A stretch of 64,000 bases of DNA from an uncultured Methanosarcinales archaeon (GCA_964647565.1 CAZYIM010000001.1:40328-104327); one strand, 5' to 3'; counted from the stretch's first letter, positions 32,173 through 59,325 are shown. Numbers and translations are program-made. The notes: generated by a model from the letters alone, not told the origin.

Positions 32173-32307
32173 TTTACAATCATAGATAAATACTAACTAA
32201 TATATAAATTTTTCCTTTGAAATATAAGTTAATATACGATATTCACATAAAATATAGCGGTTATATTTATATATTTATATATTAAATATAGAAATTGGTG
32301 TTAAAAA

Positions 32308-32520
32308 ATGGCTGCAAAACAAAATATCATAAACAAGGATATGCTAATAGGTGACGTAATAAAGAAGCATCCTATGCTTGTTGAGACCATGAGGGACCAT
32401 GGCATGAACTGTGTTGGCTGTCATATTGCCAGTTGGGAAACCATTGAACAGGCAGCCGAGGGACACGGTATCAATGTTAACAGGCTAGTGGATGAACTTA
32501 ACAAGAACAGGAGTGAGTAA
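32308..32520 (+). CDS. DUF1858 (hybrid-cluster-associated redox disulfide) domain protein
   Basis: INKDMLIGDVIKKHP...GMNCVGC..ASWETIEQAAEGHG. Confidence 0.85.
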   Translation: MAAKQNIINKDMLIGDVIKKHPMLVETMRDHGMNCVGCHIASWETIEQAAEGHGINVNRLVDELNKNRSE

Positions 32521-32521
32521 A

Positions 32522-32659
32522 ATGGAACAAGAAATCGTCTGCCAAAAAGGCCATTGCGAAGATGTCTATGATCCGAACACTGAAATAGAACATATTTCTG
32601 ATCCTGACAACATTGTCGATCAGATCGAACAGGATCTGTTTTCCACGATGATCGGATGA
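32522..32659 (+). CDS. 45-aa acidic small ORF (MEQEIVCQKGHCEDVY...) not in the ORF track
   Basis: ATG 1 nt after the DUF1858 stop; CxxxHC motif. Confidence 0.45.
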   Translation: MEQEIVCQKGHCEDVYDPNTEIEHISDPDNIVDQIEQDLFSTMIG

Positions 32660-32776
32660 ATAGCCCCCACGCGCCCCCGCGCCCTTGGCTATTCATCCTG
32701 ATATTCCAAATCTAAAAATACAGTTAGTAAAAACTTACTAGTATTGTCTATAATACAAATCTGGGAGGTAAAGAGA

Positions 32777-33244
32777 ATGACATGGCTATCTGAAATAATG
32801 CTGAATGATCACTGCCAGATTGAACAGCTTCTAAACAGGCTAAGGGTCAGTATGGAAGTAGATGATGGAGATAAAGAAGAGAATTTCCAGAAATTCAAAT
32901 GGGCTCTGGAAAAGCATTTTTTTATCGAGGAAAATGCAGTTTTAGATCTCTTCAAAAACCCACATATCGGAGTATATCGAGAAATTTCAGGAATACTAAA
33001 GGATCATGACAGGATATTAAGGTTATTGAAGGAAAAGGAAAACCAATTTGAGGAAACAGGACAGTTTGAGATGTCAGACCTAATCAAGGTCTTGTTGAAG
33101 CACAAGCAATACGAAGATAAGCATATCTATCCCTTATTAGATACAAAACTCAGTCCTGAACTTAAAAATAAGATAATCCACAGAATCGACAAAGAAAATA
33201 AACGTCAGCAATTCACAAAAATAAATAATCTGACAGGAGGTTAA
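32777..33244 (+). CDS. Hemerythrin domain protein
   Basis: DH..I, HFFIEE, DHD.I and HKQYED hemerythrin ligand pattern; GGAGGT RBS. Confidence 0.8.
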   Translation: MTWLSEIMLNDHCQIEQLLNRLRVSMEVDDGDKEENFQKFKWALEKHFFIEENAVLDLFKNPHIGVYREISGILKDHDRILRLLKEKENQFEETGQFEMSDLIKVLLKHKQYEDKHIYPLLDTKLSPELKNKIIHRIDKENKRQQFTKINNLTGG

Positions 33245-33245
33245 A

Positions 33246-33389
33246 ATGTGTTATGCATGCAGTTCAGCTGAAAGCCAGTATAAGTCAAATGCTGTTTCAG
33301 AACTGGCTAGGAGTATATGGGCGGGCATGACCGTCATAGCAACGTATCATCGAGACGTTTCAATAGGTACAAGTATGTACAAGGGGTGA
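33246..33389 (+). CDS. 47-aa small ORF (MCYACSSAESQ...) not in the ORF track
   Basis: GGAGGT RBS, N-terminal CxxC, fills the gap between two operon genes. Confidence 0.5.
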   Translation: MCYACSSAESQYKSNAVSELARSIWAGMTVIATYHRDVSIGTSMYKG

Positions 33390-33395
33390 GTTGAT

Positions 33396-33677
33396 ATGAA
33401 AAAAACAAGGATGGAGGATATTTTACCGGAATATGAAGGGGCCTGCAGTCCTAGAGTTGAAGCTTATGCAAGAAAAGATCCTGATGAACTGATCATCGAT
33501 CTTAAGAACAAGAGATTCTTACCTGCAAGGGAGATAGGATACCTTATCGGAGTATATAAGAGGTTAGATCAACACGGAGGAGAAGTCAAGCTCGTCAATG
33601 TCAGCAGGCCAGTCGAGAAGGTGCTGAATATACTGAATCTTCAAGATAAACTAATATATAACCAGGAGGTAAGATGA
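33396..33677 (+). CDS. STAS domain protein (anti-anti-sigma-like)
   Basis: LIIDL..KRFL..REIGYLIGVYKRL...GGEVKLVNV...VEKVL.IL. Confidence 0.7.
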   Translation: MKKTRMEDILPEYEGACSPRVEAYARKDPDELIIDLKNKRFLPAREIGYLIGVYKRLDQHGGEVKLVNVSRPVEKVLNILNLQDKLIYNQEVR

Positions 33678-34066
33678 TGGATGCAATCAAAAAACGGAAT
33701 TTTGTCATCACTGGTATGAGCTGCGGACATTGTGAGCAGACTATCGAAGAGATACTTTCTGCCATTGATGGCGTAACAGAGGTTAATGCAAACAGCGGGT
33801 CAGGCGTAGTCAATATAGAGTATGATCTGGGCAAGACCAATTTCCAGGCTGTTGAGAATGCTATTGAGGAATCAAGCTACAAGCTCTCAAAAAAATTCTC
33901 AGAGAAGCAAAAGAGACAAGGGATTCATTTCACAGAGCAGCAGGAGTTTAATAAGATGAACCAATATGAAAAAAACTGCGGTGGTTACAGCTTCAATTTC
34001 TATTGTGGTGAACAAGATAGAAAGCTGACCAACCAGATCGATAAGGTTATGGAGAAACTAAATTAA
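33674..34066 (+). CDS. Heavy-metal-associated (HMA) domain protein with C-terminal extension
   Basis: GMSCGHC motif. Confidence 0.8.
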   Translation: MMDAIKKRNFVITGMSCGHCEQTIEEILSAIDGVTEVNANSGSGVVNIEYDLGKTNFQAVENAIEESSYKLSKKFSEKQKRQGIHFTEQQEFNKMNQYEKNCGGYSFNFYCGEQDRKLTNQIDKVMEKLN

Positions 34067-47847: not shown

Positions 47848-48762
47848 ATGTATGATCTGGTTGGTCTGACCAATGCTATCACAGACGTGGTTGTTGGGGT
47901 AAAGGAAAAGGATTTAACAAGGTTTGGTCTAAATAAAGGAGTCTATAATCGAAGAAGTGAAATCCCTTTTGATGAGATTCTCAAATTTATGTCTTTGAGT
48001 GATTCTGTATCCATTCCAGGAGGCTCGCCAGCCAATGTTGTGCACGGAGTTGCTAAACTTGGTGGCAAGACAGCCCTCTTTGGCACTGTTGGCAAGGATA
48101 ACTATGGCACCTTGTTCAGAGAGCATATTGTCAGTGCAGGAATAGATCCATTCATAAGAACAGTCGAGGGAAAAAGTGCGGTATGTTATATTCTAGTTAC
48201 ACCTGATGGAGAAAAGACCCCCTTTGCAGACCTTGGTGTTGCAAACCAGTTTGAATATACTAAGGAACTGATGGCAAATACAAAGATGTTTCACACTTCC
48301 GGCTATGAGCTGGTCAACAATCCAGAGAAGACTAGGGAGCTAATTGAATATGCATTGTCAAGAGGCGCCATTTTGAGCTATGACCTGGCAGCGCCCATTG
48401 AGATTGCAAAAGAGAGGAAACAGGTAGAGGATTTATTGGCTGAGGTTGATGTGCTCTTTTCTACAGAGGAAGAATGCACAGAGATAATGGAGATGGAGCT
48501 TGAGTATGCAGAGGCACAATTAGCAGATATTGTACCGGTCCTGGCCTTGAAAAGAGGTGCAAGGGGATCCACTGTCTATAAAGGCGGGAATAAACAGGAC
48601 ATACCTATAGTTGATGTGAGGATTATAAACAGAAACGGTGCTGGCGATGGCTATGCAGCTGGTTTCCTGAGCGAATATCTCAAAGGCTCAGATGTTGAAA
48701 CTTGCGGCAAGAAAGGCAGTGAATATGCTGCGTATGTTTGTTCTAGAGTGCAGCCGTTTTAA
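47848..48762 (+). CDS. PfkB/adenosine kinase family protein
   Basis: PGGSPAN, GTVGKD.YG, NGAGDGYAAG. Confidence 0.88.
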   Translation: MYDLVGLTNAITDVVVGVKEKDLTRFGLNKGVYNRRSEIPFDEILKFMSLSDSVSIPGGSPANVVHGVAKLGGKTALFGTVGKDNYGTLFREHIVSAGIDPFIRTVEGKSAVCYILVTPDGEKTPFADLGVANQFEYTKELMANTKMFHTSGYELVNNPEKTRELIEYALSRGAILSYDLAAPIEIAKERKQVEDLLAEVDVLFSTEEECTEIMEMELEYAEAQLADIVPVLALKRGARGSTVYKGGNKQDIPIVDVRIINRNGAGDGYAAGFLSEYLKGSDVETCGKKGSEYAAYVCSRVQPF

Positions 48763-51089
48763 GGGTAGGTTTCAGTCTTATGCAAGAAAAGTGAATCATA
48801 ATCTTTAGCTAAACTTACATCATAATAGTGAAGACGCTCACCTAGCTCTTCAGGTCCAAAGAAATGTTTTGTCCCATCTGCTTTTGGAAAGGAAACTGCT
48901 ATATTAAAATAGCTGCATACTGCCCTGAAGAGTTCTTCAGGATATCTGTCAAAAGAACTTGTTCCCAAGCATTTCCCAAGATCATATTCACTCTGGTTAT
49001 GGGTAACCCCGACGAGTTTTGTTTTGTTAATCCTGTCTTCATACATCTCGATCTTGAGTTTTGTGTACTGCAGCTTGAATTGGTCAATGCCTGCAGGAAC
49101 AAGACCTGCTTCATGTGACAAGGGCTCCATTACAGTTACATTATCAGTGTCAAGGTATGACTTGATCATTTCTGATGAATCATTGACATCCTTATAAGGC
49201 AGAACATAAACCTTACCACCTTCTTCAATATGTCTATCAAGATCTGGTTTCATGCAGAACTCATTGTACTGATACCATTCATTGTCTAGATGTGTTTTGG
49301 CCAGATCAGGATGCAAGATGATATAGGCTTCATATTTCCGGTCTGCAGGTTCTGTTTCGCCTGTAAGCATCTTTTCCTGGGTTATTGCTGTGATCTCAAG
49401 AGGTTTTATATCTTCAACGAACTTTTTACTTTTCATTTGTGCAATTCTACCCCTGAGTTCCGGCAAAGGGATGCCCATGTTGAATTCCAATAATCTCAAT
49501 ATGTTTCCACAAGCCTGATCATCCATTTTCTCGAAATACCAATATCTTGCGCCAGATAAAACACCTAAAAGCACATCGTATTGATAAATTTCATCCAAAG
49601 TTTCAGGAGTGACAGTTTCCCCTTTTAGTTCATTCTGAGTGACCTTCAAAAGATGAGCTTTCCACTCTTCCTGATATGGCAGTAAGTTTTCCTCACCACC
49701 ATGTTTATTATAATGACGTTCAGTTGTAACATCTTCACCACTATTTATCTTATCTATATTATCTTGAGATTCTCTACTGTAAACATGACCATTTATCATT
49801 CCCCTGCTAGTGCATTCAAGATAATAATGTATGAAATCACTGCTTAAATTTTCATAATAGTACCTTATCTTTCCTGCCACCTCAGGATTGAACTTGACAG
49901 CTGTATGGCCGATGTCTTCATAGACATAATGAAGGTCATTCCAATTGCCTAATTGGTCTACATTAAGCTGTGTTAATAAATAGTCAAGCAGGCCCATGCC
50001 AATCACTCTCTTTTGGTCTGGAGTGATCTTGTCTTTGATTTTGCTCATTCTAAAATGCATTAATCTGAAATGGATGCTCAGTCCTTGATCGATATTATCA
50101 ATAACCTTATGATAGATTTTTGTAGCTTCTTCGTCTACAGCACCAGTTTCATCAAGCACTTTTTCTTCCAGTGATTTTTTAAGAAGTTCTTTAACTGGAT
50201 TTTTGGTTCCATACAGATGATAGAATGCGCCTATCGGCTCATTAGATCTTTTAACTATGGCTTTTGTTTCTTGTTTGGGTATTTCTACGCCATATTGAGG
50301 GAACAAGGATAATGATTCATCTGACAATGCCCTGAAATCATAAATGCCAAGCCATCTGTCCCAGAGTGAGCTTTGCCCTCTGTGATCAAAAAAGCCTGGA
50401 ATCTGTCTTTTTACCAGTTCCTCATAGAACTTGATATATCTGTCATCAAACTTCTTGATATCCAATGGCTCCAGCTTAACTGATGCTCTCAATGGATTGA
50501 ATGTAGTAGGTAATAGTAAAAGATTGACTCCATAATAATCCTTCAGCTCATCTGGAAGCAGATTATATTCTGGAACTTTTAATAGGGTTTTTTTAAGGTT
50601 TCTAGCAGAAATATCTGGGTTGGTCCAGGTCTTGCCCTTTTTTTCCAAGATGCCTGATTCAAGAAGAGCTCGAGGGATATTACTGGAGATTTCTGTGGCA
50701 GCTGTGTCCAATTCATTAAAAGTCTTGAATTCACCTGAATATCCTTGAAAAGATTTGAAGAGTGATGTTGCAATAGCAAGATATATTGGAAATTTGAAAT
50801 CTGGTAGAAGAATGCCAGGAATCCTATTAAGCCCTTGAGCAAGTTTCCTTATCCTATCCAGCTTGCTCTTATACTCACCTTTTTGAAATTTGTTGTAAGC
50901 CCAGTCAACTTCTTGATCCAGGCCAAAGAATCCAAAGTCCGGCGGTGTATCTGCTGGGAAAAACAGTTCCTGACCATCTTTATCAAGGGCAATGTTCCTA
51001 AGATCTGGAACGTCCGAATTCCTTTTTACAGGTAGCATATATGCAGAAAAACACACTTCCTCTTTATAAAGGTTTTGATTTTTTACCAC
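48759..51089 (-). CDS. Large hypothetical protein (776 aa)
   Basis: Long uninterrupted ORF; no motif recognised. Confidence 0.7.
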   Translation of the reverse strand: MVKNQNLYKEEVCFSAYMLPVKRNSDVPDLRNIALDKDGQELFFPADTPPDFGFFGLDQEVDWAYNKFQKGEYKSKLDRIRKLAQGLNRIPGILLPDFKFPIYLAIATSLFKSFQGYSGEFKTFNELDTAATEISSNIPRALLESGILEKKGKTWTNPDISARNLKKTLLKVPEYNLLPDELKDYYGVNLLLLPTTFNPLRASVKLEPLDIKKFDDRYIKFYEELVKRQIPGFFDHRGQSSLWDRWLGIYDFRALSDESLSLFPQYGVEIPKQETKAIVKRSNEPIGAFYHLYGTKNPVKELLKKSLEEKVLDETGAVDEEATKIYHKVIDNIDQGLSIHFRLMHFRMSKIKDKITPDQKRVIGMGLLDYLLTQLNVDQLGNWNDLHYVYEDIGHTAVKFNPEVAGKIRYYYENLSSDFIHYYLECTSRGMINGHVYSRESQDNIDKINSGEDVTTERHYNKHGGEENLLPYQEEWKAHLLKVTQNELKGETVTPETLDEIYQYDVLLGVLSGARYWYFEKMDDQACGNILRLLEFNMGIPLPELRGRIAQMKSKKFVEDIKPLEITAITQEKMLTGETEPADRKYEAYIILHPDLAKTHLDNEWYQYNEFCMKPDLDRHIEEGGKVYVLPYKDVNDSSEMIKSYLDTDNVTVMEPLSHEAGLVPAGIDQFKLQYTKLKIEMYEDRINKTKLVGVTHNQSEYDLGKCLGTSSFDRYPEELFRAVCSYFNIAVSFPKADGTKHFFGPEELGERLHYYDVSLAKDYDSLFLHKTETYP

Positions 51090-51105: not shown

Positions 51106-51786
51106 TCAAAGCCTGTTTGTCTTTAAATACCATTCCTTGCGGAACTGGATTAAGAAGGATCTCATAAATGTATGACGATCTTCTGCAAGCTTATGCGCAG
51201 TCTCTGTATTCATGTTATCCTTTAATTTCAGCAGTTTATCATAGAAATGATGTATTGCAGATGGTTCTGCAGCATCATGCTCATCATATGTTGCTTTTTC
51301 CTGTACCAGATCAGGATTCCAAAGAGCCATCTTGTGTGCCCCTGCATAGGAAAAAGCCCTTGAAACGCCTATAGCCCCTAATGCATCAAGGTTGTCTGCG
51401 TCCTGAACAATCAAAGTGTTGATGTCAGTGACCTGGTTGCCTTTTTTAGAGAATGAATAGTTCTCGTGATGTTCTATGCAGTAAAGGATCATTTTTTGCT
51501 TATCCAATGGCATCCTGCACTCATCCAGAATAATCTTGGCTTCACCTAAAGATTCCTTGGGAGAAACATATTGTTCCCTGTCAACAGACATGAACCTGTG
51601 CAGGTCATGGATAGAAAGGGCAGTACCGATCACCAATCTGTCGCCACCTTCACGCTCCTGTATATAAAGGCCTAGATCTCGTGCTCTCTTGTGATGGTAG
51701 AGATCATGATCAGGCGAAAAACAATCAGTATACAACTCCATATGCTTGTCCAGAATCATGAATAATTGTTCAAGCTGCTCTTCCAT
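51106..51786 (-). CDS. HD-domain phosphohydrolase (YedJ-like)
   Basis: HDLYHHKR, IHD, H, VQDADNLDALGAIG..RAF, HFYDKLLKL. Confidence 0.85.
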   Translation of the reverse strand: MEEQLEQLFMILDKHMELYTDCFSPDHDLYHHKRARDLGLYIQEREGGDRLVIGTALSIHDLHRFMSVDREQYVSPKESLGEAKIILDECRMPLDKQKMILYCIEHHENYSFSKKGNQVTDINTLIVQDADNLDALGAIGVSRAFSYAGAHKMALWNPDLVQEKATYDEHDAAEPSAIHHFYDKLLKLKDNMNTETAHKLAEDRHTFMRSFLIQFRKEWYLKTNRL

Positions 51787-52249
51787 AAGATTGGGAAAAA
51801 TTAACTAGTTTATAATCCTTTCTTTTAAGGCGGACATACATCCTCTCGTAAGGGAATTGTTTGGTTCCAAAGCCATGCTCATCCCTAAGATAGAGTGCCC
51901 TGTTTGAGTCAAAAGCCACCTTGAAATGCGGTGTTTTCTGAGCCCATATAGACTCATAGCAGCTTGGTCCAAAATGTATGAATTCGACAAGATGATCTTT
52001 CTGCCATTTCCGTTCCATATGGCAGTATTCTAATACGCTTGGTTTTCCCCAGTCCGGTTGTATATCGTCCTTGAAAAGATCATCAGAAGTGGATGATTTA
52101 CCTTTTCTCGAATAGAATTCTAATTTCGTTCCCTTGGGTTCAAACAGCTGTTTAAGTTGTTCTTCAAAAGCCAGGAAGTTATCATACATAAGATCATAAG
52201 GTTCCATTGAATTAACTAGTTCTACCAATTGATTGTGGTTAAGAGACAT
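51770..52249 (-). CDS. Hypothetical protein
   Basis: 159-aa ORF overlapping the start of the HD gene. Confidence 0.6.
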   Translation of the reverse strand: MSLNHNQLVELVNSMEPYDLMYDNFLAFEEQLKQLFEPKGTKLEFYSRKGKSSTSDDLFKDDIQPDWGKPSVLEYCHMERKWQKDHLVEFIHFGPSCYESIWAQKTPHFKVAFDSNRALYLRDEHGFGTKQFPYERMYVRLKRKDYKLVNFSQSYGRAA

Positions 52250-52322
52250 AAAAAAGGGAAAGATGAGGTAATATTTAATTATTTACGTTAAATTTTTAAT
52301 ATATTTTATCTTTCTCTCCTCT

Positions 52323-52847
52323 ATGAACGTAAAAGAAGCTATTGAAAAAAGAAGGAGTATTAGGAAGTATGATGACAAAGAGGTTACCGAAGAGGTTTTA
52401 AGGGAGCTTATCGACGCTGCTAGACTGGCGCCGTCAGGCAACAATGCCCAGCCATGGTATTTCAAGATAGTTACCAGTGCAGAGGACAAAAAGAAACTGA
52501 AGGATAGTAATATGTATCCGCAGGACTTTGTCTATACTGCACCAGTGCTTATTATTTGTTGTGCAGATCCAAGCGTCTATCCTGCTGGCGAATTCATCAA
52601 GGGCATGGATCATCCAAACCAGGTAAGGGCCATAAGGGACCTGTCGTTGGCTTGCGAGAATTTAGTGTTAAGAGCTGTTGAGCTTGGACTTGGCACCTGC
52701 TATATTGGATGGATGGACAAGGAAAAGGTCAAGGATCTGCTGGATATACCAAAGGATTACATTGTTCCCTACACAATAACTGTAGGCTATCCTGCTGGTG
52801 GAGCCGGTGAGCCAAAGAAGAAGAGTGCTGACGATATTTTACTTTAG
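52323..52847 (+). CDS. Nitroreductase family protein
   Basis: RRSIRKY, AARLAPSGNNAQPW, LRAVELGLGTCYIG. Confidence 0.92.
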   Translation: MNVKEAIEKRRSIRKYDDKEVTEEVLRELIDAARLAPSGNNAQPWYFKIVTSAEDKKKLKDSNMYPQDFVYTAPVLIICCADPSVYPAGEFIKGMDHPNQVRAIRDLSLACENLVLRAVELGLGTCYIGWMDKEKVKDLLDIPKDYIVPYTITVGYPAGGAGEPKKKSADDILL

Positions 52848-52869
52848 TTGAACATATTCAGGTGGTTAA

Positions 52870-53337
52870 ATGCAAGAGCTATACATAGATGATATTATTG
52901 AGAAGACTAAGAAATTAAGCAAAGAGAAGAAGCATAAGAAGACAAAATTCTATAACTTAATTGGTGAAGTCGTGCCTGATGAATGCCACATCCATCTTTC
53001 TACCAAAGAATGCACTATAATCATATTTGACGAAAAAAAACAGAGCTACACGAAAGCAGCAGTAGATTATAAATCAGGATCATATCAAGGTAGAACAATT
53101 CTCCCGACAGATGAAATTTTCAGTCTCGATAACTATAAAGCTACCTCCTCAATTATTCCAAGCTATTGCTTTAATTATCCTTCTAATAAATGGACTGTTG
53201 GCCCGTTTATTCTGTTTGTAAAAAAAATATTCACACACAATCACTCTCCTGTTGCTGAAATCGGACAGTTGATAGATAAAGATTATCCTGTAAAGTATTA
53301 CGCACCAAGAACAGATAAGATACCAACAATAGAATAA
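52870..53337 (+). CDS. Unknown paralog family, array member 1 of 7
   Basis: Starts MQELYIDD, ends RTDKIPTIE. Confidence 0.8.
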   Translation: MQELYIDDIIEKTKKLSKEKKHKKTKFYNLIGEVVPDECHIHLSTKECTIIIFDEKKQSYTKAAVDYKSGSYQGRTILPTDEIFSLDNYKATSSIIPSYCFNYPSNKWTVGPFILFVKKIFTHNHSPVAEIGQLIDKDYPVKYYAPRTDKIPTIE

Positions 53338-53339
53338 AA

Positions 53340-53792
53340 ATGCAAGAGCTATACATAGATGATGTGATTGAGAAAGCACATGATCTAGAAAAACAAAAGA
53401 AGTATAAGAAAAAGATTTTCACAGAACGTCTCTTGGCTTTGATGCCAAAAAAAGGTCACATAGTACTCAGCGGCAAGAGGGGAGATATCATCATTTATGA
53501 TCAGAAAAGCCAGTCCTATAGAAAAGCTTTATTTGATATCGAAGACGGCAATCCGATTGCAGGAAACCAACTTTTTGAGATCGAAGATTACAAACCGTCC
53601 ATACCAATAACTAATGAATACTTGATGGATGAGTTAACCACTGCTAAAGAAGCTGCAAATTTTATTTGTTTTTTAATAGGATTACATGACAAATACAAAT
53701 CTCCAGTCATTGAGTTCGGCAGGAGAGCAAACAGATATTTTCCTATAAAGGCTTACTCTCAAAGAACAGACAGGATACCAACAATAGAATAA
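53340..53792 (+). CDS. Unknown paralog family, array member 2 of 7
   Basis: Starts MQELYIDD, ends RTDRIPTIE. Confidence 0.8.
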   Translation: MQELYIDDVIEKAHDLEKQKKYKKKIFTERLLALMPKKGHIVLSGKRGDIIIYDQKSQSYRKALFDIEDGNPIAGNQLFEIEDYKPSIPITNEYLMDELTTAKEAANFICFLIGLHDKYKSPVIEFGRRANRYFPIKAYSQRTDRIPTIE

Positions 53793-53794
53793 AA

Positions 53795-54286
53795 ATGGAA
53801 ATACCAACAATAGATGACTGGCTGGAAAAAGCAGATCAATTAAGCCAAAAGAAAAAATATAAGAACAAAAACCTAGTTGAGAGACTGGGCAATATAATGC
53901 CTAAAAAAGGTAAGTTTTACCTGTCCGGTAAGCAAGGCACTGTCATATATTTTAATATTCCAAGTGAGAGCTATAAGCAAGCCATCCTGGGATTCAGTAA
54001 TAAACAAGAGGCCCAGTTCGAATATAATTTAGAATATATCTTTCCGGGAGAAAAATCATTCAGTCTTGAAGGCTATAAAGCAACAATTCCAATAACCAAC
54101 AAAGAATTTTTTTATTATCCCTATAAGTCAGAAGAAAAGCACAATGGTGCTCAATTCCTTTATTTTATCCTTAAGTTGTTCAAGGAGTACAAATCACCAA
54201 TCATGCAGATAGGACAAAAAAAGAACAGGTTCTATCCGTTCCAGTTCTACGGCCCAAGAAAAGACAAGATACCAACAATAGAATAA
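53795..54286 (+). CDS. Unknown paralog family, array member 3 of 7
   Basis: Starts MEIPTIDD, ends RKDKIPTIE. Confidence 0.8.
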   Translation: MEIPTIDDWLEKADQLSQKKKYKNKNLVERLGNIMPKKGKFYLSGKQGTVIYFNIPSESYKQAILGFSNKQEAQFEYNLEYIFPGEKSFSLEGYKATIPITNKEFFYYPYKSEEKHNGAQFLYFILKLFKEYKSPIMQIGQKKNRFYPFQFYGPRKDKIPTIE

Positions 54287-54288
54287 AA

Positions 54289-54780
54289 ATGGAAATACCA
54301 ACAATAGATGATTACATTGAAAAAGCAGAAGACCTTAAAAAAGAGAAAAGGTACAAGAAGATGGGAATATGGCAGAGACTTTGCTATGTAATGCCTAAAA
54401 AGGGCAAGTGCCATCTGTCTGGAAAGCACGGCACTGTAATCATCTATGACGAAGAAAGCCAGAGCTACAGGGATGCTATCTTATTTCATTTTGATAAACC
54501 AGAAGAATCATATAATTATAGATCACAGTATTTCCTTGCAGGAGAAAAGACCTTTAGTTTGGAAGGTTATAAGATAGATACTCCAATTATAAATAGAGAA
54601 GAAAGGGGGACTCCTAGTGAAGAAAATGTAAACAAATCTGTAGTGCATTTCCTCTATTTCTTCCTTAATTTGTTTGAGGAGTTCAAATCACCTGTCATGC
54701 AGATAGGCCAGTTTGAGAACCGGTTTTTCCCCTTCCAATTCTACTCATTACGTACAGATAAGATACCGACAATAGAATGA
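54289..54780 (+). CDS. Unknown paralog family, array member 4 of 7
   Basis: Starts MEIPTIDD, ends RTDKIPTIE; same length as member 3 (163 aa) and aligns to it essentially without gaps. Confidence 0.8.
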   Translation: MEIPTIDDYIEKAEDLKKEKRYKKMGIWQRLCYVMPKKGKCHLSGKHGTVIIYDEESQSYRDAILFHFDKPEESYNYRSQYFLAGEKTFSLEGYKIDTPIINREERGTPSEENVNKSVVHFLYFFLNLFEEFKSPVMQIGQFENRFFPFQFYSLRTDKIPTIE

Positions 54781-54799
54781 AAATATATAAGGTGATAAA

Positions 54800-55372
54800 A
54801 TGCAACAAGCAATATTAAACGATTTTTATATGTTAATCATAGACCTGTCAGCAAAAGCAGAAGAAGAAAAGGAAAACAAGCCCAAGGGAAAAAAACAGCT
54901 AGGTTTTAAGTTTCTGAATAAGAAAGATGTTTCAAAATCTGAGACTAACGAAATTTCCAATAAGATTGATGAGCTGCTAAAAAATAAGAAATTTCTGCTA
55001 AAGACTGATTGGGTAACTTATGTTATAGCAGACGAAGAAACAAAGACCTATAGAATTGCAGAATTTGACACAATCAAAGGCCAGCCATGCCCTTCAGGAC
55101 ATTTGGTCAATATGAATGATTACAAGCCGGATACAGAGATGTTTATCACAGGTTTCCCTTGTTCAGAATATCGAAAGGATGGCGGTCCAAAGAATAGGGA
55201 GTCAAATACATTAAATTTTTTCGAATCACTTTTAAAGATGCACAGAGCTGAGATTATAGAGATAGGAACAAATGAGACATTAGTGTCTACCCAAGCAATA
55301 AAAAAAAGATTCTATCCTATGAAATTCTATGGTCAAAGAACAGACAGGATACCAACAATAGAGGAGATCTAA
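54800..55372 (+). CDS. Unknown paralog family, array member 5 of 7
   Basis: Divergent N-terminus; ends FYPMKFYGQRTDRIPTIEEI. Confidence 0.8.
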   Translation: MQQAILNDFYMLIIDLSAKAEEEKENKPKGKKQLGFKFLNKKDVSKSETNEISNKIDELLKNKKFLLKTDWVTYVIADEETKTYRIAEFDTIKGQPCPSGHLVNMNDYKPDTEMFITGFPCSEYRKDGGPKNRESNTLNFFESLLKMHRAEIIEIGTNETLVSTQAIKKRFYPMKFYGQRTDRIPTIEEI

Positions 55373-55863
55373 TGAAAATGGAAGAACTATATATTGATGA
55401 TGTGATTGAAAGGGCAAGAAAACTTCAAAAAGATAAGAAGATGAAGAAGAAAACAGTAGCGCAGCTTATACAGTCTGTATTGCCAACAGAAGGCCATCTC
55501 TATCTGTCAGGAGAGCTTGGGACTGTGATTATTTTCGACGATGAAAACAAGATCTATAAAGAGGCTGTCTTGGATGTTCGAAAATGCCAACCACTTCCCG
55601 GCAATAAGATATTTAGTCTTGCTAATCACAAGTCCAACTCTCCTATAGAGACTGCTTATTATGATGCAGCAGGAAATTGGGGATATGATGATAAAGATCG
55701 CAGGTTACACGCCACAAGTCTAATATTATCCCTAAGGAAAGCACAACATGATTACGACGGCCAGGTTATGGAATTTAGCCGGACCATTGGTGACAGTCAT
55801 AATAGGCAGATATTATTCAAGACTTACATCCTAGACACAGGCAAGATACCAACAATAGAATGA
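55372..55863 (+). CDS. Unknown paralog family, array member 6 of 7
   Basis: MEELYIDD...GHLYLSGELGTVIIFD...; ends DTGKIPTIE. Confidence 0.8.
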   Translation: MKMEELYIDDVIERARKLQKDKKMKKKTVAQLIQSVLPTEGHLYLSGELGTVIIFDDENKIYKEAVLDVRKCQPLPGNKIFSLANHKSNSPIETAYYDAAGNWGYDDKDRRLHATSLILSLRKAQHDYDGQVMEFSRTIGDSHNRQILFKTYILDTGKIPTIE

Positions 55864-56429
55864 AAACACTTAAGATGGCAAAAATCAATCAGATCTATGG
55901 TTCATTGCTCGGATACAAGACAGGAAAGAAGTATCTGGAAAAGGATATCTCAGAGATTAAATCACTTGACGATCTTTCAGATATGTCAGTTAAAATGTTC
56001 AACCAGAGAAAATTTCGTAAAAAGAAGATCAATAAAATCATGGAGATCTTGGTCCCAAAAGAAGAGGAGCTGCTGTTGAGCTGGAACGGTTCGACAATCA
56101 TAATGTATGATAAAGAGCGAAAGAACATGTACACTGCTGCTCTTAATGTCGAGAGATGTTGGCCATTGGTCACTGATCAGGTTGTAAACCTTGGCAATCA
56201 TAGCCCCATCTCAGAGTTGAGCACTGAGATGTTCAAATGCAAGGATAGTATTATCGCAGGTTCCAATCATAAGAACTCTGTAAGATATGTCTTGAAACTG
56301 ATGAACATAATGAAAAGATATAATGCTCCGTTCATCCAGATAAATGATCACAAGGGAGATAATTTTTATAGGCGTTTTGCAAGCAAGGCATATTATCTCA
56401 ACACAGATAGGATTCCGACAATAGAATAG
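55860..56429 (+). CDS. Unknown paralog family, array member 7 of 7
   Basis: N-terminal extension; LLLSWNGSTIIMYD; ends NTDRIPTIE. Confidence 0.8.
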   Translation: MKTLKMAKINQIYGSLLGYKTGKKYLEKDISEIKSLDDLSDMSVKMFNQRKFRKKKINKIMEILVPKEEELLLSWNGSTIIMYDKERKNMYTAALNVERCWPLVTDQVVNLGNHSPISELSTEMFKCKDSIIAGSNHKNSVRYVLKLMNIMKRYNAPFIQINDHKGDNFYRRFASKAYYLNTDRIPTIE

Positions 56430-56435
56430 GCGTAT

Positions 56436-57338
56436 TTAAGGCTGCACTGTTATCTCAGTCTTGACAGATGGGGTGGGGACTCTTATTGAAGGAGACAGGA
56501 TTTTTTGTTTATAGGGTTTTGGTGGTATGGATGCAGAAAGATACCATTTTAGGTTAAAATTCTCACCAAATGTTGTTGGAACGACATCTGAAGGTATTCT
56601 TGTATCGATTGACACCGAGATCTGATCTTCTTCCTGCGGGATGTCCAGAACCTGCTTTATGGTGTCTAGGGTTGTATCATTATGATAGCCTTTTGCAACT
56701 GCACGTTCAACTGAATATAATTGCAGATGCAATTTGCTGTTGTGGGTTTTGGCCCTGTCTGTAATTTGTACTTTACCAGATATATTATCTCCACGATTAA
56801 ATGCAGTCTTTTCGAGAATCAATTGGATCTCAAGATCTTTTGAAGTATAGGGTATTGGATAAAACTTATTGCGTTCTTCTTCTGGCTCATCTTGTTTCTT
56901 TTTTGGGGGAGGTTCCCTTTGTATAGTTATGCCAGAAACATCGACAAGATCAATTCGAAGAGGAATATCTGCTCGTGTTTTTAACTCATAACTTACAGAT
57001 GCTTTTTTACCCTTATAGCTGGGAGTTATCTTTTCAGGCAGTTGGATTGAGAAATCTATCATGTGCACCCCTCTCTTAAAAAGCACATATTGATTCCACT
57101 CACCATTCTGGCGCTTCTTTACCACTGCTTCGAAAAGATTCATCCGAGTTGCCCAGACCTCATTGATTTCCTTGTGTGTAGAACCTGTATAGATCTCTGT
57201 GATTTCTGTTCCTGTAAGCTTAAGGTCCAAATCCCTGATCATAAGTCTGTTGTTGACATCGAACATCAATTGACCTGTTACACAGTCATTTGGAAGATAT
57301 TCTTTCTTCTCAAGCAGTATCTCAAGTTTGTTTGCCAT
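56436..57338 (-). CDS. Arrestin-like / Spo0M-like two-domain beta-sandwich protein
   Basis: LEILLEKKEYLPND.VTGQL and its repeat LILEKTAFNRGDNISGKV; FSIQLPEKITPSY.GK.ASVSYELK. Confidence 0.65.
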   Translation of the reverse strand: MANKLEILLEKKEYLPNDCVTGQLMFDVNNRLMIRDLDLKLTGTEITEIYTGSTHKEINEVWATRMNLFEAVVKKRQNGEWNQYVLFKRGVHMIDFSIQLPEKITPSYKGKKASVSYELKTRADIPLRIDLVDVSGITIQREPPPKKKQDEPEEERNKFYPIPYTSKDLEIQLILEKTAFNRGDNISGKVQITDRAKTHNSKLHLQLYSVERAVAKGYHNDTTLDTIKQVLDIPQEEDQISVSIDTRIPSDVVPTTFGENFNLKWYLSASIPPKPYKQKILSPSIRVPTPSVKTEITVQP

Positions 57339-58240: not shown

Positions 58241-58852
58241 CTAGAGATCTTGATAGTTATGTTTTTCTCTCAGCATATCGATAGCAGAATCAACATGTTC
58301 AACAATAGAATCGTATGTTTTCCTGGAAAGGCCGATATTTGGAAAACCGTAGATGTCCTTTATGACAGAACAATCAGGCTGTTCATGCTTTTTCATCCTC
58401 GAATACATGATCCAGAGCCACTTCACCTTTTTAGGATCATTGACTTTTATTATCTCCCGAATCTCTTCATAATCATGCGCCCCACCTTGATAGAACCTGT
58501 TCTCTAGTTGGGAGCAGATAGCATCCACAGCGCCTGCTTTCATGGCATCTGTATCTGCATGATCATTGGGCTTGTTGAACATCTGATGATGATACTGGTT
58601 AATCTGATGGCACTCGATGGAGGGAAGCACATATTTCTCAAAGAAATCATGATTATGGCTTCTGTACTGCATTGAAAGACCCTCTATTACAGGCCAGCTG
58701 AGCTTGCTGCCCTTGCCATCCAGATCATGAGGCCTCTGCGGATCACGGATACCGACATCCAGATGTTCGTAAAAGAACTCAACTCTGCATGAATGTTTAA
58801 TTGTCTGCAAAATCCAGCTCCTTACTTCGTTTGTGCTAGGCTTTATAACCAT
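58241..58852 (-). CDS. Hypothetical protein, HD-like His-rich (DUF5662-like)
   Basis: KH..RV, HD...SK, CH.INQYHH and VDA pattern; start placed at MVIKP. Confidence 0.55.
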   Translation of the reverse strand: MVIKPSTNEVRSWILQTIKHSCRVEFFYEHLDVGIRDPQRPHDLDGKGSKLSWPVIEGLSMQYRSHNHDFFEKYVLPSIECHQINQYHHQMFNKPNDHADTDAMKAGAVDAICSQLENRFYQGGAHDYEEIREIIKVNDPKKVKWLWIMYSRMKKHEQPDCSVIKDIYGFPNIGLSRKTYDSIVEHVDSAIDMLREKHNYQDL

Positions 58853-58938
58853 ATGGGAAGGGAATATGATCTTAATTAAAGGTTTTTCGAAAAAATTAAG
58901 ATAAATATATAAGTATAAACCCATTTCAATTTTCCAGT

Positions 58939-59325
58939 GTGTTAAAGACCAAATCAATATTGGTTGAGCCAGATGAAGGGGATGGCTTGAGGATATGTGT
59001 AATGCGGAGTCTTCAGGGACTGAATCGAGTCAGAAGAAAATATAATATCCATTATGATATGCATTTTAAATCGTTGGCACCATCAAAGGAATTGATGCAG
59101 CAATATGTTAAAGAAAAGAGCATTTCTTGGCAGGATTATGTTAATAGATACCATGCAGAAGTGCTTAAACTGCAGTTTGATCTGATACATCTGATATCAC
59201 ATATAGCTTTAGAAAAAGATATTACTCTACTATGTTCTGAACGTGAACCTAAATACTGCCATAGGAAATTGCTTGCTGAAGAATGCAAGATATACAGGCC
59301 TGACCTGGAGGTGATTGTAAAATGA
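58939..59325 (+). CDS. DUF488 (YeaO-like) family protein
   Basis: DGLRICVMR, LAPSKEL, ITLLCSE...CHR..L. Confidence 0.85.
   Translation: MLKTKSILVEPDEGDGLRICVMRSLQGLNRVRRKYNIHYDMHFKSLAPSKELMQQYVKEKSISWQDYVNRYHAEVLKLQFDLIHLISHIALEKDITLLCSEREPKYCHRKLLAEECKIYRPDLEVIVK

Follow-up and report, generated by a model that had tools for sequence, protein, structure and literature searches.

Array layout and neighbouring genes

Seven co-oriented open reading frames of 150 to 190 aa each lie at positions 52870 to 56429 of the window (the whole 64,000-nt stretch of DNA analysed here) and constitute a seven-paralog tandem array (Table 1). The initial annotation had described seven co-oriented paralogs with a common skeleton and an invariant C-terminal IPTIE, and both the open reading frames and an alignment of their products confirmed this description. 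Pairwise identity among the paralogs ranged from 20 to 54%, all of the skeleton motifs were recovered, and IPTIE was present in 7/7 paralogs, running on as IPTIEEI in paralog 5. A profile of the seven paralogs searched against the 2.68-Mb genome, that of a small-celled DPANN-type archaeon, retrieved exactly these seven (E values of 1e-52 to 1e-67, far beyond chance) and no further copies of the family. No transmembrane segments or signal-peptide-like hydrophobic stretches were observed, every 19-residue window having a Kyte-Doolittle score of 0.9 or below, as had been claimed from a reading of the sequence.

Table 1. Features of the array and its flanks (positions within the window; SD, Shine-Dalgarno sequence)
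Feature	Position	Strand	Remarks
TATA-like box TTAATATATTTT	52296-52307	+	16-27 nt upstream of nitroreductase ATG
Nitroreductase-family gene	52323-52847	+	Pfam PF00881, E 1.6e-32; 22 nt upstream of paralog 1
SD AGGTGG for paralog 1	52860-52865	+	complementary to 16S 3' end GGATCACCTCCT
Paralog 1	52870-53337	+	155 aa; tail codons 53320-53334, perfect ATACCAACAATAGAA
Paralog 2	53340-53792	+	150 aa; no SD; tail 53775-53789, perfect
Paralog 3	53795-54286	+	163 aa; no SD; +2 nt junction; head MEIPTIDD; 10-aa insertion in hairpin; tail 54269-54283, perfect
Paralog 4	54289-54780	+	163 aa; no SD; +2 nt junction; head MEIPTIDD; tail 54763-54777, single synonymous change (CCG)
SD AGGTGAT for paralog 5	54790-54796	+	inside the 19-nt gap that is the array's one true spacer
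Paralog 5	54800-55372	+	190 aa; most divergent of the seven; IPTIE 55349-55363, GAG replaces GAA, followed by extra codons EI
SD-like GAGGAGATC for paralog 6	55361-55369	+	1 mismatch against anti-SD complement GGAGGTGATC
Paralog 6	55372-55863	+	163 aa; tail 55846-55860, perfect
Paralog 7	55860-56429	+	189 aa; no SD; final array gene; N-terminal extension of ~30 aa; tail 56412-56426, two synonymous changes (ATT, CCG)
T-run TTTTTTGTTT	56501-56510	+	~70 nt past paralog 7, within convergent arrestin-like gene

The neighbouring genes encode a nitroreductase, an arrestin-like protein, a PNP/UDP phosphorylase and a DUF488 protein; no toxin, defence, mobile-element, integrase, shell, protease or unfoldase gene was found among the annotated neighbours. 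The nitroreductase gene is probably the first cistron of the array transcript, and its adjacency to the array recurs in two other metagenome contigs (L029 and L030). No SD was read between the TATA-like box and the nitroreductase ATG, and we take TTAATATATTTT, given the general features of archaeal promoters, to be a candidate promoter from which eight genes would be transcribed as a leaderless operon. The T-run downstream of paralog 7 is presumably a candidate archaeal oligo-T terminator.

Relatives, fold and age of the family

The family had gone unrecognised in the initial annotation, and systematic searches left it so. The best Pfam and NCBIfam matches (10 to 15 bits, E > 0.01) fell far below curated cut-offs, and neither eight distant relatives nor the G335 pair matched any entry in these libraries. 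No significant match was obtained in PHROGs (best E = 0.0025, over 40 residues, to a family of unknown function) or PADLOC (best E = 0.0097, one paralog only), and none by sequence search of the PDB. Library and PDB matches such as FAIM1, DUF1985 and PDE4 lay below cut-off and were discarded as noise.

An AlphaFold2 model of paralog 2 (pLDDT 90.1, pTM 0.83) and a second AlphaFold model of the same topology (pLDDT 88.0) confidently predict an alpha/beta fold with no detectable relative. Foldseek searches of the two models against PDB and BFVD folds returned best E values of 0.86, 0.13 and 0.53 and TM scores of at most 0.29, where a match required E ≤ 0.001 or TM ≥ 0.5 from a confidently modelled query; weak matches to sortase, CAT, YdgH and split-PH structures (TM < 0.3) were rejected. 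In the order of secondary structure (a short beta strand, two helices, a six-strand antiparallel meander and a long helix) the models resemble the SRPBCC/Bet v 1 helix-grip proteins, but they add a C-terminal beta-hairpin after the long helix. No SRPBCC chain was present among the PDB matches listed by Foldseek, all of which had TM < 0.3, and there was no SRPBCC-type Pfam match; we treat this likeness as a lead that the searches did not support. The novelty of the locus is that of a protein family and predicted fold that could be assigned to nothing known, and does not refer to a demonstrated mechanism. An orphan family with a confident model is well suited to structure determination.

Approximately 15 distant relatives emerged when the profile was run against 1.84 billion proteins. 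Those whose genomic context was read were single-copy and had no conserved neighbour; two resided in archaeal settings, and one was located between MazE/PIN and ParE toxin-antitoxin genes. Apart from the proteins of the window itself, just two distant ones were retrieved when 5.8 billion proteins were queried through a word index. Pattern scans found no relative in genome contigs or viral contigs and one in metagenomes. The family is sporadic, a scan of 400 genomes from the phylum giving 1 weak match. A further tandem pair, only very distantly related and with its stop and start overlapping, was present in another genome of the same order. Two candidates were set aside: P0019 (E 3e-5), an FN3-like repeat protein of 1486 aa, as spurious, and P0009, which was judged to be P0008 joined to PyrD in a chimeric fusion. 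A literature search on DPANN paralogs produced nothing relevant. Unannotated genes abound in DPANN archaea and few come with an experimental handle; the array locus offers one.

In a phylogenetic tree the seven paralogs formed one clade, within which paralogs 3 and 4 were sisters (support 100/99). Synonymous sites were saturated among them (pS 0.65-0.95) and dN/dS was 0.22-0.45, from which we conclude that the duplications are ancient and that purifying selection acts on the copies. Since synonymous sites are saturated, per-site dN/dS is unusable as a measure of diversifying selection. JGI and ENA samples supplied ten further metagenome contigs that match the window at 99.4-100% identity; the only two that span the locus (L029 and L030) carry all seven genes and the same neighbours. 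The array is therefore not an assembly artefact, and the comparison of array content that the initial annotation had suggested showed no variation in the ten other assemblies. Apparent strain differences in paralog 5 (L031 and L032) were traced to N-gaps in the scaffolds, located at a poly-A run. Taken together, the age of the paralogs, purifying selection and near-identity across contigs indicate an old and stable expansion as opposed to a fast-diversifying repertoire, and the retention of seven old copies under purifying selection argues that each is non-redundant.

Constant ends around variable middles had also been proposed, and the identities of individual segments bore this out. The two variable segments had mean pair identities of 0.11 and 0.07, with indels, and map on the model to a beta-hairpin tip and to the loop preceding helix 3; they are, as modelled, indel-prone surface loops. 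Helices H2 and H3 were almost equally variable (identity 0.15 and 0.17). The length of the second loop also differs among the single-copy relatives in other organisms, suggesting that this loop is just weakly constrained.

Gene junctions and the C-terminal tail

The six junctions of the array measure +2, +2, +2, +19, -1 and -4 nt. In H. volcanii, a spacing of -8 to +10 nt between co-oriented genes predicts termination-reinitiation (PMC10666635), and 5/6 junctions fall within this interval. The start of paralog 2 lies 2 nt past the stop of paralog 1 (TAAAAATG), paralogs 5 and 6 share 1 nt between stop and start (TAATG), and paralogs 6 and 7 overlap by ATGA. No SD precedes paralogs 2, 3, 4 or 7, which start at +2 or -4 nt; this indirectly supports a dependence of downstream on upstream translation. 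The SDs of paralogs 1, 5 and 6 match the 16S 3' end of the genome, that of paralog 6 being encoded by the tail end of paralog 5 together with its EI extension. Genome-wide, 3' ends preceding coupled starts were A-rich and SD-rich. A frameshift or readthrough fusion of adjacent cistrons was also considered: the -1 frame stays open over the +2 junctions, and no slippery site was found ahead of the stop at these junctions.

Conservation within the protein peaks in the IPTIE tail, whose identity is 1.00 compared with at most 0.50 in any folded element; the tail is disordered in the AlphaFold2 model of paralog 2 (residues 147-150, pLDDT < 50). The four substitutions that separate the tails were all synonymous (4/4, P = 0.0036), which argues that the tail peptide itself is under selection. 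IPTIE is still exact in paralogs 4, 5 and 7, whose tails precede no SD-less coupled start, and the linker before it (R-T-D-K/R) is kept as protein with mixed codons. A disordered tail of five residues that is the most conserved part of its protein provides an immediate bait for a partner.

The junctions are additionally homogenised at the DNA level. The 15-mer was perfect in the 4 tails before SD-less coupled starts and altered in the other 3 (Fisher P = 0.029), a contrast drawn from seven tails only. Where residues were the same, codon identity was 0.79 in the tail and 0.64 in the head compared with 0.42 in the body. All exact repeats of at least 14 nt within the array lay at junctions, including a 44-nt tract and a 30-nt tract that genes 2 and 5 share at their 3' ends although their proteins are just 30% identical. 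A 14-mer of the tails occurs again in the MEIPTIDD heads of paralogs 3 and 4, and its genome copies are confined to the array. The initial annotation had missed that the constant ends are also constant as nucleotides, and that the tail is derived. A selected peptide that overlaps the reinitiation region of the next cistron would be a clear-cut example from nature of two constraints on one coding sequence at translationally coupled junctions.

The tail was absent from all outside relatives and is, by this comparison of sequences, a derived feature. It may have originated from a neighbouring head; no simple head-to-tail duplication path could be reconstructed, the 12-nt spacer being unrepeated on either side. 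As a general C-terminal tag IPTIE was rejected, no other ORF in the genome ending with the motif, and as a genome-wide DNA motif ATACCAACAATAGA was likewise rejected, 7/7 exact copies lying within the array. No similarity of the tail to known targeting peptides was found, and the literature matches to IPTIE were all noise from OCR or Dutch-language text.

Possible roles of the array

We favour, at a probability of roughly one in three, a reading in which the paralogs are translationally coupled subunits working jointly and their common tail serves as a docking peptide. At the locus a very rare archaeal family has expanded sevenfold in tandem, long ago and within one lineage; the seven genes are probably co-transcribed, likely together with the upstream nitroreductase. 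At the five close junctions, coupling by termination-reinitiation would fix the stoichiometry of seven non-redundant paralogs, which may form a hetero-oligomeric assembly in which the tail, (R)T(D)(K/R)IPTIE, docks onto a neighbouring subunit or one common partner. The 15 nt encoding IPTIE would double as the reinitiation region for the next SD-less cistron. Subunits of a hetero-oligomer were among the options of the initial annotation, and it is this option that the stop/start-coupled junctions fit best, albeit indirectly. The sporadic distribution of the family counts against a complex, being commoner for accessory or conflict genes than for core complexes, and the relatives elsewhere, single-copy and with no conserved neighbour, give no sign of an ancestral oligomer.

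Support for coupling comes from H. volcanii, where the final 15 nt of the upstream gene suffice for termination-reinitiation and coupled pairs are 8.1-fold enriched for subunits of heteromeric complexes, with ~55% of tightly spaced pairs encoding no complex (PMC10666635). Like the coupled complex operons already described (Huber et al. 2019, 2023; PMC6728339, PMC10666635), the array is co-oriented at -4, -1 and +2 nt and has SD-less downstream genes with the last 15 nt as a putative initiation region, and the host genome has the expected junction composition bias. It differs in that a single orphan family supplies all the partners as paralogs, whose complex formation we infer, and in that the 15-nt region encodes an invariant peptide which is itself selected.

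Proteasome alpha/beta subunits, Lsm/Sm rings and CCT/thermosome are paralogous hetero-oligomers that arose from homo-oligomers via duplication. The array resembles these in its old, non-redundant paralogs of one predicted fold, under purifying selection and apparently made together; in contrast, its family has no sequence or fold similarity to them, the genes form a single tandem array, and a ring or other oligomer is our conjecture. If a hetero-oligomer does form, the locus records subunit diversification through tandem duplication inside a prokaryote. A more specific version strikes us as improbable: a fixed-order ring or short filament of unseen fold, in which the tail is a DNA copy of the neighbour's IPTID(D) head and docks in the head-strand site of the next subunit, the 15-nt element serving as assembly peptide and reinitiation signal alike. 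Such an ordered assembly would mean that a DPANN-archaeal homo-oligomer was turned into an ordered hetero-oligomer via tandem duplication.

The initial annotation had preferred a diversified repertoire, such as orphan immunity proteins, and we consider it unlikely that the variable loops recognise different host, virus or toxin targets while the common tail plugs into one hub. A constant scaffold and tail around two poorly conserved loops of differing lengths is what such binders would display, the lineage-specific distribution is typical of accessory or conflict genes, and one distant relative does sit among toxin-antitoxin genes. The paralogs are nevertheless ancient and constrained, their content and sequence do not vary in the ten other assemblies, H2 and H3 are nearly as variable as the loops, and the PADLOC, PHROGs and neighbourhood results gave no link to toxins, defence or mobile elements.

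About equally doubtful is an explanation of the constant ends as a nucleic-acid by-product of reinitiation needs and short-tract gene conversion, with IPTIE functionless and the proteins acting independently. They could, for example, be small proteins of the cytosol that are redundant in part and are co-expressed with the nitroreductase. The raised codon identity of tails and heads, the confinement of long repeats to junctions, the array-specific 14-mer and the genome-wide compositional bias before coupled starts would all follow, and the presence of the 14-mer in the heads of paralogs 3 and 4 fits DNA copying over convergent peptide function. The identical junction tracts of 30-44 nt amount to homogenisation, which could partly maintain the tail without peptide function. 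Against this explanation, the tails of paralogs 4, 5 and 7 retain exact IPTIE through purely synonymous change, the linker is conserved as protein, and conversion tracts limited to ~15-45 nt beside saturated bodies would be unusual.

C-terminal docking motifs on disordered tails include the bacterial SSB tip, the EEVD-TPR system of Hsp70/Hsp90, the HbYX motif of proteasome activators and encapsulin cargo-loading peptides. The array tail is also invariant, predicted to be disordered and carried behind a linker on a diverging folded domain, but IPTIE matches none of these and is limited to one family in one species. We think it improbable that the tail is a sorting or turnover signal, a degron or cargo-loading peptide, addressing the paralogs to one machine, such as a protease, an unfoldase, a compartment or a shell, with no mutual complex. 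Its place at the extreme C-terminus, behind a short conserved linker, and its restriction to the seven paralogs within the genome would suit such a signal, as would the format of encapsulin peptides and C-terminal degrons, but it resembles no targeting peptide that we found, the annotated neighbours include no shell, protease or unfoldase gene, and a general sorting system would not typically reserve its tag for one family.

Orphan immunity genes of polymorphic toxin loci likewise form tandem, co-oriented arrays encoding small cytosolic proteins that lack signal peptides and come from sporadic, accessory-looking families, but here there is no toxin gene, toxin-tip cassette or PADLOC match, 2-nt spacers leave no room for a cassette, and a single family, in place of the usually heterogeneous immunity families, forms an ancient, constrained array that is invariant between samples. 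An integron cassette array was rejected, the spacers of -4 to +19 nt being too short for attC sites (imperfect inverted repeats of ~60-140 nt); the only repeat in the array is the 14-mer, which lies inside coding sequence.

The array, its family and its relatives

Alignment of the array proteins with MAFFT recovered every motif of the common skeleton listed in the initial annotation, and the ORF listing confirmed seven co-oriented genes. The C-terminal IPTIE, described there as invariant, was present in 7/7, with member 5 running on as IPTIEEI. Pairwise protein identity ranged from 20 to 54%, genes 3 and 4 being the closest pair, and pI from 6.1 to 9.6. TM segments were absent, as had been stated; no 19-residue window was hydrophobic enough for a TM helix. 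A seven-member profile matched exactly the array's seven genes in the 2.68-Mb, 87%-complete genome (E 1e-52 to 1e-67), and no further family copy was found with this profile or with local hmmsearch/jackhmmer over all ORFs.

The window was matched at 99.4-100% by ten other metagenome contigs (JGI and ENA samples), and the two spanning the locus (L029 and L030) retain the same seven genes and the same flanking neighbours. This shows the locus to be genuine and constant in content; the between-strain comparison of array content that had been proposed revealed no variation among these assemblies. Apparent differences in gene 5 (contigs L031 and L032) were rejected as scaffold N-gaps at a poly-A run rather than biological variation. 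N-runs fall exactly at this run in two independent assemblies, marking it as an assembly weak spot.

Coordinates of the array, its surroundings and two outside loci (window positions unless a locus or contig is named; array genes from the ORF listing)
Feature	Position	Strand	Details
Nitroreductase gene	22 nt upstream of array	+	same strand as array
Array gene 1	52870-53337	+	155 aa
Array gene 2	53340-53792	+	150 aa
Array gene 3	53795-54286	+	163 aa
Array gene 4	54289-54780	+	163 aa
Array gene 5	54800-55372	+	190 aa
Poly-A run in gene 5	55282-55313		AAAAAAAA
Array gene 6	55372-55863	+	163 aa
Array gene 7	55860-56429	+	189 aa
Arrestin-like protein	56436-57338	-	300 aa; Arrestin_N E 2e-14, Arrestin_C E 5e-12
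Flanking ORF	48759-51089	-	776 aa; no Pfam match at E <= 1e-3
Flanking ORF	51106-51786	-	226 aa; no Pfam match at E <= 1e-3
Flanking ORF	51770-52249	-	159 aa; no Pfam match at E <= 1e-3
Flanking ORF	58241-58957	-	238 aa; no Pfam match at E <= 1e-3
Locus of relative P0010	L024 6230-8224		
G335 paralog pair	L015 513-1932; contig C12 about 32296-33715		conserved PHTHYK and YHDxADM

The proteins had been assigned to no recognised family, and searches of Pfam, NCBIfam, PHROGs and PADLOC, together with a profile run against every PDB sequence, indeed returned sub-threshold noise only. An AlphaFold2 model of member 2, built on an alignment of the seven array sequences only (pLDDT 90.1, pTM 0.83), predicted a fold in which a short strand at the N-terminus and two helices lead into an antiparallel meander of six strands, followed by a long helix and, last, a beta-hairpin. 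The distant relative P0007, modelled independently (19-sequence alignment, pLDDT 88), displayed the same topology. Foldseek comparison of both models with the PDB, and of member 2 also with BFVD, gave no match at E <= 0.1 or TM >= 0.3; the predicted fold is novel relative to solved and viral structures. In membership tests the array proteins possessed none of the defining features of known families, and their relatives are annotated only as hypothetical. Thus, family and fold are new relative to all libraries tested. The array is not yet a new system; its novelty rests in this family and fold.

A HMMER search through all of 1.84 billion cluster representatives (cut-off E <= 1e-3) yielded 22 proteins, comprising six clusters of the window itself and sixteen others. 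One of the sixteen, an FN3-like repeat protein, is probably spurious, and P0009 (245 aa), in which a dihydroorotate-dehydrogenase-like N-terminus is joined to the last ~130 residues of another relative, P0008, is probably a chimeric contig or gene-call artefact. The credible relatives are mostly 165-198 aa in length and contain the core motifs ILPxEGxIxLSG, VIIYD, YxxAxxD, GQPxP, AAxFLE, PVxEIG and NRYFPxxxY. Their N-terminal region is longer and opens M-x-D-x-T-I-D-D, and they stop two to four residues past the last strand, with an IPTIE tail in none. No Pfam match was obtained for these outside relatives. Those with readable context are single-copy with no recurring neighbour, and one adjoins spt5 and secE in a typical archaeal arrangement. 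P0010 has a MazE/PIN pair on one side and a ParE-like pair on the other; no other relative's surroundings hint at an accessory or toxin-antitoxin-rich location.

A survey of the phylum gave a weak match in 1 of 400 genomes (G335), consisting of a tandem overlapping paralog pair (228 and 247 aa, 45% identical) with remote kinship to the array family (hhalign probability 91%, E 1e-6). Among the 400 genomes the pair is restricted to one species, and it is absent even from a genome of the same genus. The superfamily is rare, sporadic and wholly unannotated.

Age of the duplications and the variable segments

In a maximum-likelihood tree of the seven array members and twelve outside relatives, a branch with support of 72/50 set the seven apart, and a single origin for them suffices in 74% of bootstrap trees. 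Genes 3 and 4 pair as sisters (100/99), and the terminal branches of the tree are long. Since synonymous differences between array pairs are saturated (pS 0.65-0.95) and dN/dS is 0.22-0.45 where dS was computable, the duplications are old and each copy is under purifying selection.

Two internal segments had been flagged as differing wholly between neighbours and taken to suggest a diversified repertoire. Both are real (mean pair identities of 0.11 and 0.07), but helices H2 and H3 come close to them in variability (0.15 and 0.17). The first segment is the tip of a beta-hairpin (hairpin residues 59-79) with insertions of 0, 5 or 10 aa; the second is a loop of 6-13 aa before helix 3, the length of which also varies strongly among the single-copy relatives. 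This pattern suggests weakly constrained surface elements rather than a dedicated hypervariable system. A repertoire of binders using these loops would be in keeping with the sporadic distribution of the family, which argues for an accessory role. However, the age and constraint of the copies, their invariance between samples and the coupling of the genes favour co-functioning subunits instead, and we consider a repertoire unlikely.

The C-terminal tail and the gene junctions

Conservation in the array proteins peaks in the tail, where identity is 1.00, against 0.58 in the preceding linker and at most 0.50 in any folded element. The tail is predicted to be disordered, as the last four residues of the member 2 model fall under pLDDT 50. 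Conservation extends to the DNA: where the residue is shared, codon identity is 0.79 in the tail, 0.64 in the N-terminal head and 0.42 in the body, and the tail codons ACA and ATA are each used in 7/7, compared with genomic usage of 0.39 and 0.35. The genome contains seven copies of the 14-mer ATACCAACAATAGA, every one within the array: five in tails and one in each of the MEIPTIDD heads of genes 3 and 4. All exact repeats of at least 14 nt within the array lie at junctions; tracts of 44 nt, 30 nt and 26 nt are common, respectively, to junctions 2/3 and 3/4, to the 3' ends of genes 2 and 5 (whose proteins are 30% identical) and to the 5' ends of genes 1 and 2.

With the 3' end of the genome's 16S rRNA (GGATCACCTCCT) as anti-SD reference, good SD motifs were found for genes 1 (AGGTGG), 5 (AGGTGAT) and 6 (GAGGAGATC, encoded by the extra 'EEI' codons of gene 5). 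Genes 2, 3, 4 and 7 have no SD and begin 2 nt past the preceding stop (TAAAAATG) or overlap it (ATGA). According to Huber et al. 2023 (PMC10666635), termination-reinitiation is predicted by distances of -8 to +10 nt and needs no more than the final 15 nt of the preceding gene, and in H. volcanii such close pairs are 8.1-fold enriched for subunits of heteromeric complexes, 45% vs 5.6% (PMC10666635). Genome-wide, ~430 co-oriented ORF pairs are tightly spaced (start -1 to +5 nt from the first base of the upstream stop codon), with ATGA overlaps dominating (281). Over the last 15 nt upstream, the 429 other tightly coupled pairs display third-position A at 0.44 vs 0.34 and SD-like 4-mers in 45% vs 16%. 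Given these close pairs with A-rich, SD-rich upstream ends, this archaeon appears to make heavy use of translational coupling.

The last 15 nt of the array genes are precisely the IPTIE codons. This 15-mer is perfect in the four tails preceding SD-less coupled starts (genes 1, 2, 3 and 6) and altered in the three lacking such a start after them (genes 4, 5 and 7; Fisher P = 0.029, n = 7). The alterations are synonymous in 4/4, vs 24% of possible single changes (P = 0.0036). Selection acts on the tail peptide itself, while its codons carry an added nucleic-acid constraint and the junctions are also locally homogenised. Homogenisation and codon constraint lend some credence to the view that the constant ends are mainly a DNA- or RNA-level by-product and that the proteins act independently; selection on the peptide itself speaks against this, and we regard it as improbable.

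The tail is a derived feature. Outside relatives carry a head of the form x-[LIV]-T-I-D-D, and because the IPTIDD heads of genes 3 and 4 keep the ancestral T-I-D-D and are identical in nucleotide sequence to tails over 14 nt, the tail may, speculatively, derive from a neighbouring head by copying. Two bases separate IPTIE-stop (GAA TAA) from IPTIDD (GAT GAT). No simple duplication path from head to tail could be reconstructed.

Possible joint function and genomic setting

The array is an ancient, constrained sevenfold tandem expansion with a coupled gene architecture. A single transcript may begin at a TATA-like box lying 16-27 nt before the SD-less nitroreductase ATG and end at a T-run ~70 nt past gene 7, with termination-reinitiation probably operating at five junctions of the array. 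The seven products would act together in a hetero-oligomeric assembly, the tail serving all of them as docking peptide, a tentative reading to which we assign a probability of about 0.35. That the tail is a degron or cargo signal seems very doubtful. The locus represents a well-defined portion of DPANN dark matter that is amenable to experiment and bears an unusual terminal element of dual use.

The genome encodes ribosomal protein L31e and an archaeal SSU rRNA, its order comprises many small genomes (0.6-2.1 Mb, each its own family), and NCBI annotates one outside relative as 'hypothetical protein [Nanoarchaeota archaeon]'; the host is therefore a DPANN-type archaeon. At 2.68 Mb the genome is unusually large beside the same-order genomes listed, and it is the sole member of its family among the genomes compared.

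The neighbours of the array are ordinary chromosomal genes, with no integrase, transposase, toxin or defence gene seen among them. In addition to the nitroreductase, they encode a PNP/UDP phosphorylase, a DUF488 protein, PfkB, a DNA-alkylation repair enzyme, a GNAT acetyltransferase, a deaminase and a DEAD helicase, together with several ORFs without a Pfam match. The arrestin-like gene is convergent to the array and lies 6 nt from the gene 7 stop, an adjacency also present in other assemblies; arrestin-fold proteins are unusual for a DPANN-type archaeon. Judged by eye, the flanking 226-aa and 238-aa ORFs contain HD-phosphohydrolase-like His/Asp motifs.
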